Source: Candidatus Latescibacterota bacterium (lineage in GTDB: Bacteria; Krumholzibacteriota; Krumholzibacteriia; WVZY01). From it: 64,000 bases of DNA. The position numbers were made by a program, and so were the translations under genes. How positions within the stretch are numbered: position 1 is the first letter of the stretch; the number at the start of each line of letters is the position of its first letter. Under the pieces are notes generated by a model, which had not been told where the DNA came from, searched no databases, and saw only the letters and a list, made by a program, of their open reading frames with translations. Below are positions 1 to 7,491 of the stretch, one piece after another. The DNA lies in assembly GCA_963791045.1 (NCBI GenBank), contig CAWBQK010000011.1, positions 224,001 through 288,000 on the forward strand, given 5' to 3'.

Positions 1-258
1 CACAGGCGTTTTTCGGGTTTGTGGCGGCCTTGCGCCACTGTGGTGTTTTTTTAGCTGTGAACAGAACCTAATTACCCATTGTTTCCAACTATCCCAAAGG
101 GTAACCGATTGCCTCCGATCGAATCGAAAGGAGAATTCGTATTGTTTCCAATGATTCCTCCATTGCGAGCTTCAGAGGTCTGTCGACGTGAGACGAGCGA
201 AGATAAATCGCAGATATTGATTCGAAGAGATTTGGCTTATTTCAGCAAACGAGAGTAC

Positions 259-336
259 TCAGCAATTTTCTTTGCGCGGAACACAGAGAACTTTGGTCCC
301 CCCTGGGGGTCGACGTGCTGCACATTCAATCCGCAT
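259..336 (-). CDS. possible 25-aa Cys-containing peptide (MRIECAARRPPGGTKVLCVPRKENC) on the sigma54 transcript
   Basis: GGAGG lies 5 nt before the ATG at 336, downstream of the sigma54 promoter at 489-504; a G6 run inside the ORF could hide a frameshift. Confidence 0.3.
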   Translation of the reverse strand: MRIECAARRPPGGTKVLCVPRKENC

Positions 337-376
337 CGCTGCCTCCGCATAGTCAGACCAAGTGAATCCCAGCAGA

Positions 377-466
377 TGTTGTGTGAGGCAACGAGCCCAA
401 ATCGTTCCCTCACACAACACGTTCAGCAAGTTGACGCCGAAAAACAAGCCGTTGTTTCGACGTCAA
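377..466 (-). ncRNA. two long tandem hairpins (431-466 and 377-419); structured leader or sRNA
   Basis: TTGACG..CGTCAA and TGTTGTGTGAGG..CCTCACACAACA stems; two mismatches become G.U pairs on the minus strand. Confidence 0.55.
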
Positions 467-488
467 TGTGTTAGTCGGATCTCCAATG

Positions 489-504
489 GGCAAGCTGCGT
501 ACCA
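489..504 (-). promoter_or_regulatory. sigma54 -24/-12 promoter
   Basis: reverse complement TGGTAC-GCAGC-TTGC, 1 mismatch to TGGCAC-N5-TTGC; lies next to a sigma54 activator locus. Confidence 0.75.
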
Positions 505-653
505 CGCTTAAGACTTCGTTAACTTGTGTGTTTTCAATGAGGTCATGGTTTTAAGGTACGGATTCGAGAATTTTTTATGTGACAAATTTTCTTTACACTA
601 TCGTATGTTAAGGGATTGTAATTGATTCGCTGAATCTATTGGCACTGACCGGT

Positions 654-669
654 TGTCAATATATTGACA
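654..669. promoter_or_regulatory. palindromic enhancer (UAS) candidate TGTCAATATATTGACA
   Basis: perfect 16-bp palindrome of TGT-N10-ACA type, ~150 bp upstream of the sigma54 promoter. Confidence 0.6.
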
Positions 670-794
670 CCGTTTCTCCAATCTTGGCAAAAATCAATTT
701 AACGGTTCATGTTATAGGCGTTGATGAGCGCACCCAAACTGATCGGCCAATATTGGGGCGTTAACTAGGCAGTTGCTCATTGTGCAAAATATTG

Positions 795-823
795 TTGAGT
801 AGAAGGTTACAGTCTGATATAAT
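795..823 (+). promoter_or_regulatory. sigma70-type promoter for the peptide/TPR-activator operon
   Basis: TTGAGT-17 nt-TATAAT with a TGn extended -10. Confidence 0.6.
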
Positions 824-1061
824 TCAATCCTCAGGGTGTCCTTCGATAGAGCTTTGACTTGACGGATATAAACGGATTACCAGAAATAAGCTGGGTTATT
901 CGCATGTTGAAGCGACCACCACAATTGACGAGACTTATGAGTACGGTGCCCAACCGGCTGAAGCTCATCTCGTTTCCGCAAACCTGCGGTTCACAATCAG
1001 AGTCTGTCCGATCCTGTCCTTCCCCCGGTTATCTCGTGTTAGTCAAAAGAGGTGTTACACG

Positions 1062-1379
1062 ATGATTTCGAAATTTGTACGGATATCGACAGGTGCCTTT
1101 GTGTGCGCTTTTATGACGATGTTCCTAATAACGATCTCAGGTCTAATCCCAGTCGATGACGCCTTGGCTAGGGACACAGAAACCAAGCCCTACGTTGTTC
1201 CGGGTGACGCAGATGGAATTGGGGGATACAAGGGCTATGAATTCGTTGAGGAGCCCTCAGGCGTTACAGGGAGTGCGCATGGAAAGGTGATGCCAGACCT
1301 AAGAGAGAAAAACATCTTGATTTACTGGACATGCTCCTCGCCCTGGCTGGCAAACCTTTGCATTTTTGTGACACCATAG
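1062..1379 (+). CDS. small secreted protein / putative signalling pro-peptide
   Basis: GAGGTG RBS, hydrophobic N-terminal signal ending ALA, GDADGIGG segment; abuts the TPR gene. Confidence 0.7.
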   Translation: MISKFVRISTGAFVCAFMTMFLITISGLIPVDDALARDTETKPYVVPGDADGIGGYKGYEFVEEPSGVTGSAHGKVMPDLREKNILIYWTCSSPWLANLCIFVTP

Positions 1380-1389
1380 GTTGCGGTTA

Positions 1390-4300
1390 ATGACAAGACC
1401 AATAACACACCAAGAGCGCCTTCAGACTGAGTCCATTATTAATGCGGATGATAAGTTCCGCGCTATTTTGGAGTGTCCAGACTTTTTTCAAGATGTACCG
1501 GCATACAGTAGGGCAAGAAACTTAGTGGAGCGGCTTGTCGAATTGAATCAACTGCACTACCTTGATATCGCGAGCATGAATCTGGCGTTACTGCGCGTAC
1601 AACGGATGCGGTCTAATCTTGATCAAGAACAAGCCAAAAAAACTCTCGATAGAATCACCAAAAAGGTCGGTGCTTCAACTCCGCAGCGTTATCAATGCGC
1701 ACTTCTGAGGGCGGAAATTGGCTTGTTCGGCCAGGGTGACTTTGTTTATGCGATGAGAGAGTATGAAAGATTGGAAAAAGAAATACGATCTACGAATCAG
1801 CACTTTTTGTATGGTCTTGTTGTAAACGGTATGGGGCTTGCGCTTTCGGCGTTGGGAGACGAGGCGTCAGCAGAGGATCGGTTTCATGATGCGATGAGTG
1901 TATTCAGACGTATGGATAATCACATGCAATACGCATACAGTCTGAACAATTACGGTGTTTTGAAGAAAAAGTGTTGTCGATATGCAGAAGGGGAACGAGC
2001 TCTAAAGAGAGCATTGAAAATATTCCGATCGTTGGGAATGCTGGAAGGGCAAACGCTCTGTTACAACAATTTGGGGGTTGTTGGGCTGAAGACTGGCGAG
2101 TGGCAAAGTGCTCGATACTGTTTTGACAAGGCAATTCAATGTAAACGGGATCTGTCCAAAGGTGCTGTTGAAGACGACAATAGTTTTATTCGAAATTCGA
2201 GTATGATTGGCGAGATTAATCGTCTCCATCTGGATTTATTGAAGAGACAGTTTGAGGGGATAGAAGGACGATTTGTTGATCTAGTAGCAGCCGCCAGGAC
2301 GCTTGATAACTCAAGGTATGTGGCTTTGCTGCAGGAATTCTTGGCCGACTATAAGATGGAAGTACAAGAGCATTCTGAGGCCAAAGAATGTCTCCAGAAG
2401 GCATTGTCGACGACCCAAAAAATAGCACCCACAAGCGACGTTATGACGGAGGTCAAACGTCGACAGGCCCAACTCCATCTCCTGCAAGACGAACCAGAAG
2501 ATGCCAAACGAGAAGCGCTCGAGTGTATCCGACTGTGTATCAAGATTCGAGACAAACATGAGATGGGAGCTGCGCTCCGGATTCTTGCGGAAACGAATTT
2601 TAAACTCGGCCTAACCCAAAAAGCTGTCAATGCTTTCGAAGCCAGCATCAACACACTTAAAAGCATCCACGAGTGCTACGAGTTGATGCGAAGCTGTATT
2701 TCCTACAGCAAGTATCTGATCGAAACCAAAAGCGATGATGCTGACATCTATCTTCTCGAAGCAAGACAGCTCTGCAAGAAGCTCAAAATCGACTTTTTCA
2801 CCGCTCAGGTTCTGATCCTCTATAGCAAATATGATTTCAACAATGGAGACTATGGTATCGGCGAGGAGCAATCTGAAGCTGGCAAATGAGTATGCAGACA
2901 GACTGGACCCGAATGACAAAAAGGCGATTGCCCCATTGATCCGCGATTGGTACAAGACGCTGGAAAAGGAAATCCTCCAAACAAGCCAGGAGTCTGCAAA
3001 GAGACTCAAATCCCTGGGAAGAATCTACGAAGAGGCGAGATTTCCTCTGGAAGAACTGAAGCCCGAGCTCGCGACAGAAGTTGCTCGAAACGTCGGGGCC
3101 GAGTGCCTGTTCCTCGCAAAGCAACAAAACAGCGGCTATCGAATCCCCCTCAAATACAATCTGTCGATCAACGATGCGAAGCAGATCCTCCGTCGACAGC
3201 TAAGATGTGACGCGAAGACCCTGTTCAAGGGAAGCGATCCCAGATTCTGTCCGATGATGAACGGCAAAACGCTTGTATCGGTGCCGGGACAGACCGGCCA
3301 GGGTTTCATTCTGTGCGCGGTGGTCCCGGACAAAAAGTCATTTACACCAAAGGAATTGGAGTTCTTGTTCGCAAGTGTGGAGGCAATGGAGCGGGTTGCG
3401 ACGGAGATAGGCGACGTTCCTTACCAACTGGACACGACAGATTTTCTGGACAGCGATGAGGAGACGCTCGCGCACCCGGGAGGCTCTTTTGAAGAGATCA
3501 TCACGATCGACCCAGAGTTGATCAAGGTCATCCGACTGGCCGAACGTGCGAGCCAGAGTTCCGTCCCGATACTTCTGGAGGGCGAAACAGGTGTCGGCAA
3601 AGAACTGTTCGCCCACGCAATCCACGAGAATAGCCGCCGGAAAGAAGGCCCCTTCATTGCAATCAATGCGGGGGGCGTGCCGCTGAATCTGCTCGAGAGC
3701 CAACTCTTCGGACACGTGAAAGGCGCATTCACGGACGCGGTGTCGGACCGCGTCGGACTGGTAGAGGAAGCAAAGGGTGGCACGCTATTCTTCGATGAGG
3801 TGGGCGATATGTCGGAGGAACTCCAGGTCAAATTGCTCCGCCTGCTGGAGAACGGGGAGTTTCGCCGTCTCGGCGAAAACGATGTTCGCCACACAAACGT
3901 CAGAGTGGTATCGGCGACCAACAAGAATCTGGAAGATCGAATCGCAAACGGCCTGTTCCGGGAAGACCTGTACTACAGGCTCGCAACGGTGAGTTTCAAG
4001 ATCCCGCCGCTGCGCGAGCGCCGGCGCGATATCGAGTTCTTGCTGAGACATTTTCTGACAAGAGGCATCGAGAAGCTGGGATTCTCCCGCCGCCGCCTTA
4101 ACGTCGATATGAAAGCACTGGAAGCCTTCGAACTTCACTCATGGCCTGGCAACGTTCGCGAACTCAGGAACGAGATCATGCGAATATTCTCACTCATCGG
4201 TGATGGCGAAGTGATACGGTTTGGAATGCTTTCAGAGAGGATAAAAGACGCCTTCAGATCAGGGAATGAAAGCGGCATTCTCACGCAGCGCGTGGAACGT

Positions 4301-4426
4301 TTCGAACGCCGGCTCATTCTAAAGGCGCTGGAAGACAACTCCTGGAACCGCTCCAAGACCGCCGAGCAAATCGGCATTCCACGGACGACCCTCTTATTCA
4401 AAATGAAAACCCTTAATATAATGTAG
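1390..4426 (+). CDS. TPR-repeat sigma54-dependent transcriptional activator (TPR + AAA+ + Fis HTH), split by a 1-nt frameshift at ~2854
   Basis: TPR motifs (YSLNNYG, CYNNLG); GETGVGKE, GAFTDA, FFDEVG, WPGNVREL and C-terminal HTH; removing one G of GG 2854-2855 joins the two ORFs. Confidence 0.9.
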
Positions 4427-4457
4427 CCTCTGAGACCCAACACCCCACCTCAAGACT

Positions 4458-4490
4458 AGTGAAGGCCTGGTAATTCGCCAGGCCTTCACT
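4458..4490. terminator. hairpin terminator between convergent genes
   Basis: AGTGAAGGCCTGG-7nt-CCAGGCCTTCACT. Confidence 0.65.
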
Positions 4491-4552
4491 TGCATAAATC
4501 TTTATTTATAAATCATATAGGGTTTTTCTGTTGAGGAGAATTCCGCCACATC

Positions 4553-4756
4553 TCAAAGTTTGATTTTTTGCTTTGGCTGAGCCTCACGCTCGAGGACGGA
4601 TTTGAGGCGGCGGCGGACATGCGGGCGATCCGAGAGGTCGATGACATTGAGCGCGATCATACGGCCGCACCCGGGGCACTTCTGCGCTCTCCCCATATCA
4701 AACAGTTGGAGAATGTGTTCTCCGCAACCTTCGCACTTGATGGTACACCCCGTCAT
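4553..4756 (-). CDS. small zinc-ribbon protein
   Basis: CEGC..CPGC pair; GAGGA RBS. Confidence 0.6.
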   Translation of the reverse strand: MTGCTIKCEGCGEHILQLFDMGRAQKCPGCGRMIALNVIDLSDRPHVRRRLKSVLEREAQPKQKIKL

Positions 4757-4977
4757 CCCGTTCCTCTTTCACGCCCGATCGAAACCTGGCTGGAAAACAT
4801 CACCACAGCGAAGCAGACTGGATTGAGTGCCTGAGAACCTATTATATCGTATAAATTGTGATAATTCCAGAAACGTTTGAGCAAATGTTGTCGAGCTCCA
4901 CGTGGTATAATTATAGATTGAGGCAGATGGGTCGCGCATCGATGGATCGCAAAACGGCTCTCTCGATTGGAAAGACC

Positions 4978-7491
4978 ATGACCGGCAGACACCTGCAAGC
5001 CCTCATCTTTTTCAGTATCACCCTTCTCTTGCTTACGTCCGCTCTCGCCGCGGCGGGCGAATACACCGAAACATTCACGAACACGACCCACTTGAACCCC
5101 GGGCAGACGACCGCCGTCTGGGACACAGCGTCGGGACAACTCACGATGCCCGTCCCCCCGATCCTCATCGGGAGCGCCGCGACCGGCGGGCACGCGTACG
5201 CCGTCAAGATCTGGGGTGACCGCGCCTATGTCGCCGCCGGGACGGCGGGGCTCGAGGTCTTCGACATCACGGATCCCTCGGCGCCTTTCATTATAGGAAG
5301 CTACGACACGCCCGGCGAGGCGCTCGATGTCGCGATAAACGGCGGTATCGCCTGCGTCGCCGACGGCGACTCGGGACTCGTGATACTCGATGTGACCGAT
5401 CCCACGGCGCCGGCGCTCTCGGGGCGGTTTCAGACGGGCGGGCGCGCGCAGGGCGTAGTCTGCGAGTCGGTCTTTCAGGCCTGGGTGGCGAGCGGAACGG
5501 CGGGTTAGAGATCGTCAGAATCATTGACCCGGCGAACCCGATCCTTGAAGCGAGCCACGACACGTCCGGTGATGCCGCGGCGGTCTTTTACGCGGGGAGC
5601 CGGGTGACGGTGGCCGACGGCGCCGGCGGGCTCGTGCTCGTCGATGTCACCGACCCCTCGAGTCCTTCTCAAATCGGTTCGACGATGACCGCCGAGGCGG
5701 GCGACGTCTTCACCGATGGCAATTACGCGTATGTCGCCGACACGGCGTACGGACTGCGTGTGTTCAATGTCTGGGCGTACGGACTCAATATGCGAGGGAC
5801 GTGCCCGACACCGGGGACGGCGAAAGGTGTTTTTGTCGCGGGCACGCGGGCGTATGTTGCCGACGGCGACGCGGGACTTCGTGTGATCGATGTGTCGGAC
5901 CCGTGGACCCCGGTTCCCGTGACGGACCGCGACACCCCGGGCGACGCCTGCGATGTCGTCGTCGACGGCGAAACGGCCTATGTCGCCGACGGCCCGGCGG
6001 GGCTCCAGGTGTTCAGTCTTCGCTCGCCGGTTGCGCCCACGCTCCTTGGCACATACAACACGCCCGGCGAATCCCAGGCGGTCACTGTAGTGGGTGAAAC
6101 CGCCTATGTGTCCGATCATGACTTTGGGCTGCGTGTGATCGATGTCGCCAGCCCCTCGGGCCCGTTCGAGATCGGAAGCTACGTGCCGTCGTGGTACACC
6201 AATGCCGCTGCGGTTTCCGGCGGCTACGCGTATCTCGCGAATTCGTACAACGGGCTCACGGTCGTCGATGTGAGCATGCCCCCGAGCTTTCCGTTCGTTG
6301 GGGGCCGCGGTACGGTGGGACGGGCGACCGATATCGTGGTGGGAGGGATCGTCTCGCACACAGCCTGCGGGGACGGCGGCTACGCGCTGAACGTCATCGT
6401 GGACCCCACCAACCCAGGACAAGCCGCATACTGCAGTACGCCGGGATGGGCGGAGGGTGTCGACTACGCGGGGAAATACGTTTACATCGCCGACTATGAC
6501 GAGGGACTCCAGGTAATCGATCTCACACCGCTTGCCGGTCCCGAGATCGTGGGGAATTACGACTCATCGGGGCGGTCGATGGACGTCGCCGTCGCCGGTG
6601 ATCACGCGTACGTCGCCGATCTCGACGACGGGCTAAAGGTGATCGACGTGTCCGACGCGACGGCTCCGATACTTGTGGGAAGCTACACGGAAAGTCGCGC
6701 GTTTGAGATTTGCGTTTCGGGAGATTACGCATTCGTCGCGGCGGGTCAATCACTAGAGATGTTTGACGTGAGCGATCCCACGTCGCCCGTTTTTCTCGGG
6801 AACCACACGACACCCGATGTCGGCGCCGGGGTATTCGCACTCGGGGATTATGCGTATTTCGCAGCGGGGTACACGGGGCTCGAGATCTACCGTGCTTTTC
6901 AAAGTGATGCCGTGGGCGGTGTTCTCGTCGGGCAATCGCTCCCGATAGACGACACCGAAGAGTCAATCGGGTACGCTCGCCTCACGGCGACGCAGACCGA
7001 TTCGGTTGCCTGGGAGCTTAGCGCCGACGGCGGCGCGCACTGGCATGCCGCCACACCCGGCGGCGGCTGGGCCACGCTCACCCCCGGGAGCGATCTTCTC
7101 TGGCGGGCGGCGCTCACGTGGTCGACACCCGGCGTTTGCCCAACCGTGTCGGAGGTGACAATCGAGTGGCTACCCGAGGATGCGTCGGGTGTTGGAGACC
7201 CCGCGCCCAGCGGTTGAATTCAAACTGCATCAAAACGTTCCCAACCCGTTCAACCCATCGACGTTGATTCGTTACGAGCTCGCCGCGCCGTCGTGGGTCG
7301 ACCTTCGCGTGTACGACGCGACGGGCGCCCTGGTGCGCGTCCTCGTCGCCGATGACCGGCCGGCGGGCCCGAATGAAGCCCACTGGGACGGTAGAAATCA
7401 ATACGGCGCGCGCACCGCATCGGGCGTTTACTTCTATCGATTGAAAGCGGCGGGGTTCGAGATGACGCGGAAGATGGTGCTGATCGAATAG
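4978..7491 (+). CDS. secreted LVIVD-repeat beta-propeller protein with FlgD-Ig/T9SS-type C-terminal domain; frameshifts at ~5503 and ~7200
   Basis: signal peptide; many AYVADG..GL.V.DV.DP repeats; QNVPNPFNP..WDG..GVYFYRL..RKMVLI tail. Confidence 0.88.

Follow-up and report, generated by a model that had tools for sequence, protein, structure and literature searches.

Introduction

Activators of sigma54-dependent transcription are well understood as machines, and their known inputs are mostly two-component receivers and small-molecule domains. In the LuxO-sigma54-Qrr system of Vibrio, the gene for such an enhancer-binding protein adjoins a sigma54 promoter that serves a non-coding RNA. Regulators of another kind, such as FlgM-sigma28, IpgC-MxiE and ExsE-ExsC-ExsD-ExsA, respond to how much of an export-bound protein is still inside the cell, and the tetratricopeptide repeat (TPR) modules of such secretion-coupled systems bind amphipathic or hydrophobic segments of the export substrates; we know of none of these regulators that is fused to a sigma54 activator. 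For the RRNPP systems, a signature of five criteria has been given, which in the accessible part of that account includes a Sec-secreted propeptide of 10-100 amino acids (aa), a receptor of 250-500 aa with TPRs, and the adjacency of the two genes (PMC10075063). Here, we describe a locus at the left end of a stretch of 64,000 nucleotides (nt), hereafter called the window (contig C11:224001-288000 of source genome G000, which comprises 3.66 Mb in 21 contigs and has a completeness of 80.9%), in which the gene for a small, predicted exported protein directly precedes that for a TPR-containing sigma54 activator of about 1000 aa.

An earlier note on this DNA had read the locus as an RRNPP-like circuit of a diderm bacterium with an output through sigma54. 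The comparison with relatives reported below makes it secure that the cassette, which consists of the small exported protein, an activator with TPRs and a GAF-like domain, a palindromic enhancer and sigma54 promoters, is a conserved unit of an uncultured class. In it, an undescribed module of a sensor and its partner is joined to a standard sigma54 activator core, and its candidate targets are readable.

Results and Discussion

The small gene and the activator gene occur together across the class

We fetched 65 loci, which represent 63 distinct places in 60 relatives; 59 of these could be assessed, and the loci L013, L014, L016 and L045 were excluded because of a contig end or a fragmented N-terminus. 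At 58 of the 59 assessable loci, the TPR ORF is immediately preceded, on its own strand, by a small open reading frame (ORF) that encodes a signal-like N-terminus and an acidic GD motif. Three of these small ORFs are truncated by the start of the contig, yet their motif and tail are visible, and another (L059) is split over two frames. The sole locus at which no small ORF could be recognised is G006:C316 (L011/L067). In the source genome itself, a small ORF lies 5′ of both activator copies, one in the window and the other on contig C10. The two genes are 1 nt apart in the window, and in the loci of the window's own paralogue group (type 1, described below) the spacing ranges from -76 to 33 nt. 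The adjoining signal-peptide ORF with a GD-type motif, which the earlier note had named as something to look for beside homologous TPR activators, is thus a regular feature of these loci.

A scan of genome contigs with the TPR ORF alone confirmed no relatives, and in a scan with the homologue P0003, its own record was the single match. When metagenome contigs were scanned with the C-terminal 521 aa of the activator, 80 loci were kept, the best of them at 33-49% identity, and close alleles were lacking. No publication describing such a pair of a small protein and a TPR-sigma54 activator turned up in the literature, parts of which were accessible in excerpt.

The small protein carries a signal-like N-terminus, a GD motif and an aromatic tail

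The signal-peptide protein of 105 aa recognised in the earlier note holds up: its ORF has a basic n-region followed by a hydrophobic core (Table 1), and the sequence AAGAGGTG lies 7 nt 5′ of its ATG. Members of the family have 91-133 aa, with 91-119 aa among the 54 full-length members that were measured, and a simple rule for a basic n-region and hydrophobic core, namely at least one K or R ahead of a 12-residue core with a mean Kyte-Doolittle value of at least 2.4, holds in all 54. Sites resembling A-x-A are visible by eye. An automatic rule for the cleavage site was tried and rejected, because its sites fell within the hydrophobic core. With this basic N-terminus and hydrophobic core, the small protein is predicted to be exported by the Sec route, with its bulk outside the cytoplasm.

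In an alignment of 45 small proteins, G48 (window numbering) is invariant, and D49 and G55 are kept in at least 90% of the sequences. The near-invariant motif of the family can be written as G-D-x-x-x-hydrophobic-x-G and the shared core as G-D-x-[DE]-[DG]-hydrophobic-x-G-hydrophobic-[KR], for which many loci of the second paralogue group (type 2) have GDADGLSGLKG and the window has the form listed in Table 1. The C-terminal tail of most members is aromatic and partly charged (for example, ...ELWWKFMILWAR), with a mean of 3.4 aromatic residues in the last 16 residues versus 0.72 per 16 residues elsewhere; in five loci, belonging to families f5 and f8, the aromatic segment precedes the GD motif instead. 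The mean Kyte-Doolittle value of the last 18 residues lies between -1.06 and 1.59, mostly between 0 and 1.4, which is too low for the tails to form a membrane span.

The small protein of the window had no match in Pfam, NCBIfam or the ESM Atlas. A profile search of the family gave 141 clusters at E <=0.001, and of the 120 clusters listed, not one carries a Pfam domain, and the names given are 'hypothetical', except for one JGI name. The NCBI name attached to the relatives among these matches is 'Candidatus Krumholzibacteria bacterium', and by these names the class is presumably Krumholzibacteria.

The activator joins a TPR superhelix and a GAF-like domain to a sigma54 activator core

The earlier note had described an activator of about 1000 aa. 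Its domains were found as claimed (TPR, Sigma54_activat and HTH_8), and its single frame was not, since the gene is read here as two ORFs (Table 1). Within the second ORF, Sigma54_activat is matched at residues 224-388 (E 9.5e-64), together with AAA_lid_14, and HTH_8 is matched at the C-terminus (E 3.4e-11). The Walker-type motifs GETGVGKE and FFDEVG are intact in the translation. The loop that contacts sigma54 reads GAFTDA in the window and in the relatives P0001, P0005 and P0006, which is a one-residue variant of the GAFTGA seen in P0003. No export signal was seen in the translation of the activator. The genome has a single rpoN, with one Sigma54_DBD match (E 2.5e-65), and sigma54 AAA+ domains are matched at about 18 places.

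An AlphaFold2 model of the TPR part has 26 helices, a predicted local distance difference test score (pLDDT) of 92.2 and a predicted template modelling score of 0.89. Residues 492-502 fall below a pLDDT of 50, as expected, because the last 10 or so codons of this ORF are an out-of-frame read-through. In a Foldseek search, the best matches of this model were peptide-binding TPR proteins (LGN/Pins at E 8e-9, APC/C and OGT), and a phage Rap protein with its pheromone ranked 49th, among generic TPR proteins. The closest solved relatives of the modelled superhelix bind extended peptides, and it may be a sensor of the peptide type. The region 2861-3505 was modelled as a long helical linker followed by an alpha/beta domain (pLDDT 83), whose best Foldseek match is a GAF domain (3cit_A, E 1.8e-4); the match is weak, with template modelling scores of 0.44-0.59 and roadblock-like folds intermixed, and a Pfam scan of the activator found no match to the GAF family. 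We call this domain GAF-like.

The window copy belongs to a fast-evolving paralogue group

A tree was built from the first 300 residues of 51 TPR ORFs, and one of its branches (support 93/98; 94% of bootstrap trees) separates ten sequences, among them the window copy, from the remainder. The window copy is thus a member of a fast-evolving, AT-shifted group, type 1, which is confined to two families. Its end branches measure 0.96-1.75, and one 7.1, versus a median of 0.2. By E-value, type 1 is present in five of the 12 genomes of family f1 and eight of the 23 of f2, and the 25 genomes of f3-f8 lack it. Type 2, to which the C10 copy belongs, is found in all families, tracks taxonomy and is usually preceded by a gene for an NtrC-like response regulator. 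The two types also differ in their small proteins, in that the motif variant G-[DH]-x-[DE]-x-[ILVT]-x-G-[YFR] occurs in 11 of 11 type-1 loci versus 3 of 46 type-2 loci; together with the branch in the tree, this speaks for the two genes being kept as a unit.

The earlier note had remarked that the block is richer in AT than its flanks, and this is so: the GC content is 0.42-0.48 over positions 251-3000 and 0.57-0.66 further right in the window. The left edge of the low-GC block lies about 2.5 kb outside the window, inside the TPR-rich C-terminal half of an upstream gene for a kinase-TPR protein, and its right edge coincides with the end of the TPR part of the activator. In all eight type-1 loci compared, the GC content of the TPR part is below that of the AAA+ part; the type-2 copy on C10 has no such difference.

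A palindrome and divergent sigma54 promoters accompany the type-1 cassette

The earlier note had also pointed out three elements before the small ORF, namely a sigma70-type promoter, a palindrome and a near-consensus sigma54 promoter facing the other way, and each of them stands up to closer inspection (Table 1). For the sigma70-like promoter, the position counts and not the number, as there are three such sites in this region versus 2.3 expected from shuffles. In three loci of one genus, an alignment inspected by eye showed a conserved TTGACG-N18-TAAACT about 200 nt before the small ORF. The palindrome, which is perfect, recurs as TGTC-N8-GACA 296-482 nt before the small ORF in six of the seven type-1 loci, against a genome background of 0.033 per kb, and it aligns among the three loci of one genus. 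A stricter form, TGTCRA-N4-TYGACA, occurs six times in the genome, versus about 0.9 expected by our own estimate; the sites include C11:215421, C15:179993, C16:19182, C17:358704 and C18:24495, and the C15 site stands shortly before a further sigma54 activator gene.

The divergent sigma54-type element, P1, is 150-165 nt from the palindrome, which is the classical distance; sites like it number 169 in the 3.66 Mb of the genome on both strands. A divergent sigma54-like element with at most three mismatches lies 105-487 nt to the left of the first palindrome in five of the seven type-1 loci, and the CTTGCC at the end of P1 is also the ending of the Pa promoters of the type-2 loci. Judging from this arrangement, the divergent promoter next to the activator is probably switched on by it. 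The predicted P1 transcript would begin with a structured region: the minus-strand fold from 478 to 250 has a free energy of -84.5 kcal/mol (z -2.93; none of 200 shuffles was as stable), and the inverted repeat 377-394/402-419 is 94% complementary. An Rfam search of window positions 1-6000 gave no meaningful match. That an RNA is the product of P1 is only a guess. As a separate candidate, P1 was considered as the promoter of a gene for a small protein and was rejected, because the only ORFs in the minus-strand frames past 478 are one of 18 codons and a Cys-rich one of 62 aa, both with a TTG start and neither with a ribosome site. Further to the left, the window has a direct repeat, ATTGTTTCCAA(C/T), in two copies that are 63 nt apart (78-95 and 141-158), and terminator-like plus-strand hairpins with a T-run at 21-46, near which no plus-strand gene ends.

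A second candidate target lies just outside the window, in the 12 kb to its left that were also read (locus L002). The promoter P2, which points the same way as P1 and consists of TGGTCCCCCGCTTGCC followed by a TCGCCTGACG box, is located 249-264 nt left of the window start, before a gene for a lipoprotein (Table 1). Both P2 and its TCGCCTGACG box align with the promoter of a lipoprotein of 57-63 aa in three loci of another family. In these three loci, which belong to one genus, a ribosome site stands about 30 nt past the promoter, and the lipoprotein gene behind it is flanked by the cassette on one side and by a kinase-TPR gene on the other.

Type-2 loci have paired palindromic sites, sigma54 promoters and a conserved structured RNA

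In seven of eight type-2 relatives and on C10, the stop codon of the activator is followed by a promoter Pa (TGGCACG-N3-CTTGCC) and then by a structured RNA, conserved and about 270 nt long, whose 3′ end is formed by a long-range stem and a U-run. Beyond the RNA are two palindromic sites and then a second promoter, Pb, in all eight type-2 relatives and on C10; in eight of eight type-2 loci, Pb lies about 170-190 nt downstream of the paired sites, which are related to the palindrome of the window. Pb precedes a gene for a protein of about 290-320 aa without a Pfam match, and the next gene on C10 has a weak, sub-threshold match to DUF4384.

The predicted structure of the RNA has 59 pairs, 16 of which show compensatory changes, and the RNA of six type-2 loci was unmatched in Rfam. 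A model of its first 101 nt found one copy each in the source genome, in nine of 10 genomes of f1 and in 17 of 20 genomes of f2, and no copy in 90 genomes of f3-f9. Where the coordinates could be compared, the RNA is encoded 2-3 kb past the type-2 TPR match, on the contig and strand of that match. An nhmmer search of the source genome with the profile of this RNA found only the C10 copy, and thus the P1 transcript is not a relative of it in sequence.

Coordinates and neighbouring genes

The main features are collected in Table 1. To the left of the lipoprotein gene, a long gene encodes a kinase-TPR protein, and in another family, three loci have a similar gene beside their type-1 cassette (identified by a Pfam scan for L069, and by ORF size and N-terminal resemblance for L070 and L068). 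It is absent beside the type-1 cassette in L071-L073. Just 3′ of the activator, on the minus strand, is an ORF of 67 aa (4553-4756) with four pairs of the Cys-x-x-Cys type and a weak zinc-ribbon match. Further right, at 4858-7491, is an LVIVD-like gene that has a sorting-type domain at its C-terminus and looks divided into three successive ORFs that lie in different frames.

Table 1. Location of the features of the cassette and its surroundings (window positions unless a contig or locus is named)
Feature	Location	Strand	Remarks
Kinase-TPR protein, 1286 aa	L002:7230-11090 (window -4770 to -910)	+	Pkinase, AAA_16 and TPR_12 matches
Lipoprotein ORF, 141 aa, with sigma54-like element P2	L002:11259-11751 (window -741 to -249)	-	lipobox LATIGC; P2 about 65 nt before
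Two strong hairpins (~431-466 and 376-420)	376..466	-	5′ end of predicted P1 transcript
Sigma54-type -24/-12 element P1, TGGTACGCAGCTTGCC	489..504	-	2 mismatches to TGGCACG-N4-TTGCW
Perfect 16-nt palindrome, TGTCAATATATTGACA	654..669	.	candidate enhancer (upstream activating sequence) for HTH_8; from sequence
Sigma70-like promoter for small ORF and activator, TTGAGT-17-TATAAT	795..823	+	10/12 consensus positions; TG before -10
Small, predicted exported protein, 105 aa	1062..1379	+	signal sequence; GDADGIGGYKG at residues 48-58; aromatic/hydrophobic C-terminal tail
Activator, N-terminal sensor, 502-aa ORF	1381..2889	+	TPR superhelix of ~490 aa; TPR_12 (E 4.2e-18), TPR_2 and related families
Approximate frame change	2857..2866	+	alignment of both window frames to P0001
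Activator, remainder, 531-aa ORF	2831..4426	+	helical linker, GAF-like domain, AAA+, AAA lid, HTH_8
Hairpin GAAGGCCTGG-TAATTCG-CCAGGCCTTC, possible terminator	4461..4487	+	just 3′ of activator stop; read from sequence
Structured RNA of type-2 locus	G000 C10:103699-103974 (L099:2200-2475)	-	promoter TGGCACATGGCTTGCC ~245 nt past type-2 activator stop; also in L091-L098

A proposed mechanism and the observations that weigh against it

How might the cassette work? We propose that the sigma70-type promoter would transcribe the linked genes for the small protein and the activator. The first product would be the small Sec-exported protein with its GD motif and aromatic tail, and the second a cytoplasmic activator of about 1000 aa composed of the TPR superhelix, the GAF-like domain, the AAA+ domain and the helix-turn-helix (HTH) domain. 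The activator would bind TGTC-N8-GACA upstream of its own operon and, once activated, would open with ATP the sigma54 promoters that face away from it, P1 with its structured leader and P2 with its lipoprotein gene. The cognate input may be the small protein or part of it, held in the cytoplasmic TPR groove, and it could arrive there by either of two routes. In the first, a processed fragment would be taken up again, as in RRNPP systems; in the second, the precursor would be read before its export, which would constitute an export-coupled switch. The small protein is suggested as the input because the adjacency extends over eight families, the spacing is tight, each paralogue type has a separate small gene, and the sensor has a fold of a kind that usually clamps extended peptides. 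We hold direct sensing of the small protein by the activator, by whichever of these routes, as a tentative reading that falls somewhat short of an even chance.

Several observations speak against this proposal. First, the small protein is predicted to lie outside and the TPR domain is without an export signal, so the two could meet only before export or after re-uptake. Second, the GD motif is invariant across the class and hence cannot encode specificity; the earlier note had taken GDADGIGG for the mature signal, and this invariance is better suited to a motif for processing, structure or common recognition. Third, the GAF-like domain, as modelled, could be the true sensor. Fourth, co-variation of the motif with the TPR domain had been named in the earlier note as a check, and no co-variation of the small protein with the TPR domain was seen beyond common descent. 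In a Mantel test of 29 type-2 loci, the distances of the small proteins and of the TPR parts are correlated (r 0.72); once descent is accounted for, with the neighbouring NtrC-like gene as its proxy, the partial r is 0.03, a value reached by 761 of 2000 permutations. The test covers the first 255 TPR residues at these 29 loci, and the low-complexity linkers align poorly. Fifth, on the side of the outputs, three-frame translation behind P1, in which a start, a ribosome site and a signal sequence were sought, gave no convincing ORF, and a blastn search with window positions 1-1061 against all fetched loci and the genome returned only the query itself, so P1 is not conserved in sequence. No sigma54 promoter was found 5′ of the small ORF in the loci scanned, and therefore an autoinduction loop is not visible. 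Finally, the activator is out of frame in this assembly.

This last point raises the question of whether the window copy is a decaying, non-functional paralogue, with a genuine frameshift and with P1 and the structured region as leftovers. The two activator ORFs lie in different frames and overlap by 59 nt. In the nine best relatives, the activator occupies a single open frame of 1004-1075 aa; the closest relative, P0001, which was the best match among 1.8 billion representatives, is one protein of 1004 aa with 47% identity. Around the frame change, frame 1 of the window reads ...YSKYDFNNGDYG and frame 2 reads ...SARSNLKLANEYADRL, and P0001 has SSKYAHNNEDYMAARAYLRKAEE within one frame. A decaying copy would account for the activator in two frames, and the lack of a gene behind P1 and the accessory, fast-evolving nature of the type-1 group would agree with it. 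However, rpoB is found in nine pieces and rpoC in seven in the same genome (C5:40912-48769), and the activator of the C10 paralogue is split as well. Because these genes are fragmented in the same way, the split most likely results from an indel in the assembly, which is the simplest reading. Both halves are, moreover, otherwise open and give high-confidence models, and the Walker and loop motifs are intact. We thus regard decay of the window copy as very improbable. Contigs from four read sets provided pieces of 35-336 nt that are 90-99% alike and cover parts of 2300-2743 and 3114-3400; none of them spans 2744-3113.

An activator that senses something else would account for several of the same observations. 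The small protein would then be an envelope protein that is co-expressed with the activator, either as the first member of its regulon or as a feedback element, and the input of the activator would come from elsewhere through the GAF-like domain or the TPRs, for example as a small molecule or another protein. Such a reading agrees with the different predicted compartments of the two proteins, with the presence of a GAF-like domain and with the lack of co-variation beyond descent. The predicted outputs, which are exported proteins or lipoproteins, also suit the envelope theme proposed for sigma54 regulons in the accessible part of one study (PMC3162934). Against it, adjacency at 58 of 59 loci over eight families, a small ORF of its own for each paralogue and the tight type-1 spacing exceed what is usual for co-expression. 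We consider this explanation possible rather than probable.

Could the cassette be a strict, RRNPP-like quorum-sensing system? Here, the propeptide would be exported, cut, accumulated and re-imported, and the peptide would bind the TPR groove that is fused to the sigma54 activator and thereby drive sigma54 transcription; it would amount to cell-to-cell signalling of the RRNPP kind in a diderm of the FCB-related candidate phyla, with the small lipoprotein and, as in LuxO-Qrr, a structured regulatory RNA of the sister paralogue as outputs. That the organism is a diderm follows from the Omp85-family proteins in its genome (11 matches). Three of the five features of the RRNPP signature, as given in the accessible part of its source, are found here, namely the Sec-type signal, the TPR receptor and direct adjacency (PMC10075063). 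Type 1 has a patchy distribution and evolves fast, and in all eight loci its sensor part is shifted towards AT, as is common for hypervariable signalling cassettes. Family-5 solute-binding proteins of the Opp/Dpp type, with seven matches at five places on four contigs, are encoded in the genome.

On the other hand, the lengths fall outside the ranges of the same signature, marginally for the propeptide (105 aa here and 91-133 aa in the family) and widely for the receptor (about 1000 aa, with about 490 aa in the TPR part alone). The mature part has two conserved segments and not one short variable tail, the supposed GD signal is invariant class-wide, and the test for co-variation was negative. 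Close alleles, which would allow a comparison of dialects, were not found in the scan of metagenome contigs, and signalling would require two passages of the peptide across the outer membrane. No publication that joins RRNPP systems with sigma54 activators turned up in the literature accessible in full or in excerpt. Thus, the gene pair, the palindrome with a divergent sigma54-type promoter, sigma54, the Omp85 proteins and the Opp/Dpp-type proteins speak for the circuit that the earlier note had envisaged, whereas the lengths of receptor and propeptide and the negative co-variation test do not. We judge strict quorum sensing to be unlikely; it is one of the two routes already contained in our estimate for direct sensing and does not add to it.

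Significance of the cassette

The small partner comprises about 140 clusters, none of them annotated, and stands beside an activator fused to a sensor of a peptide-binding type. The cassette therefore offers a test case for two questions, namely whether diderms use encoded peptides that are read inside the cell and how an exported protein can report to a cytoplasmic transcription machine. Because the enhancer and the target promoters can be read from the sequence, the system could be reconstituted. It would count as a system of a new kind only if it senses peptides. In the case of quorum sensing, the AT-shifted, fast-evolving block, which begins in the TPR part of the adjacent kinase and ends with that of the activator, would be a swappable 'dialect' cassette. 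The structured RNA that is driven by sigma54 in type-2 loci represents an RNA family that is not yet described and is linked to this regulator.

Comparison with known systems

The cassette resembles the RRNPP(A) systems of Bacillota (Rap-Phr, NprR-NprX, PlcR-PapR and AimR-AimP) in that a small gene with a Sec signal lies beside the gene for a cytoplasmic TPR regulator of transcription, and in that the window's paralogue group is patchy and fast-evolving. It differs from them in several respects. The regulator is an ATP-driven sigma54 activator of about 1000 aa that would act at an enhancer, in contrast to an HTH or phosphatase protein of 250-500 aa; the small protein has about 100 aa and two conserved segments; the host is a diderm; and the match of the TPR model to Rap ranks only 49th. 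The secretion-coupled regulators of the FlgM, IpgC and ExsE type, whose logic the proposed export-coupled switch would share, depend on flagellar or type III export, whereas the small protein of the cassette carries a predicted Sec signal.

A further likeness is to LuxO-Qrr, since the type-2 activator gene is followed by a structured RNA of about 270 nt and P1 of the window leads into a structured region without an ORF. Unlike LuxO-Qrr, the cassette has no receiver domain or phosphorelay, and its RNA is far longer than Qrr and lies outside the Rfam families.

In its core, the activator also resembles the GAF-containing enhancer-binding proteins of the NifA, NorR and FhlA type. Judged by sequence, several features of an enhancer-binding protein are present, namely an AAA+ domain with Walker A and B motifs, an HTH domain, a sigma54 gene in the genome, and an enhancer together with a -24/-12 site. 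As in these proteins, a GAF-like domain, a sigma54 AAA+ domain and an HTH of the Fis type are combined, and the -24/-12 promoter lies 100-200 nt from the palindrome; the upstream site of the NifA kind, TGT-N10-ACA, resembles the palindrome of the window. What sets the cassette apart from this type is the TPR superhelix of 490 aa before the GAF-like domain, the GAFTDA loop, and the dedicated gene for a small, predicted exported protein that stands directly upstream.

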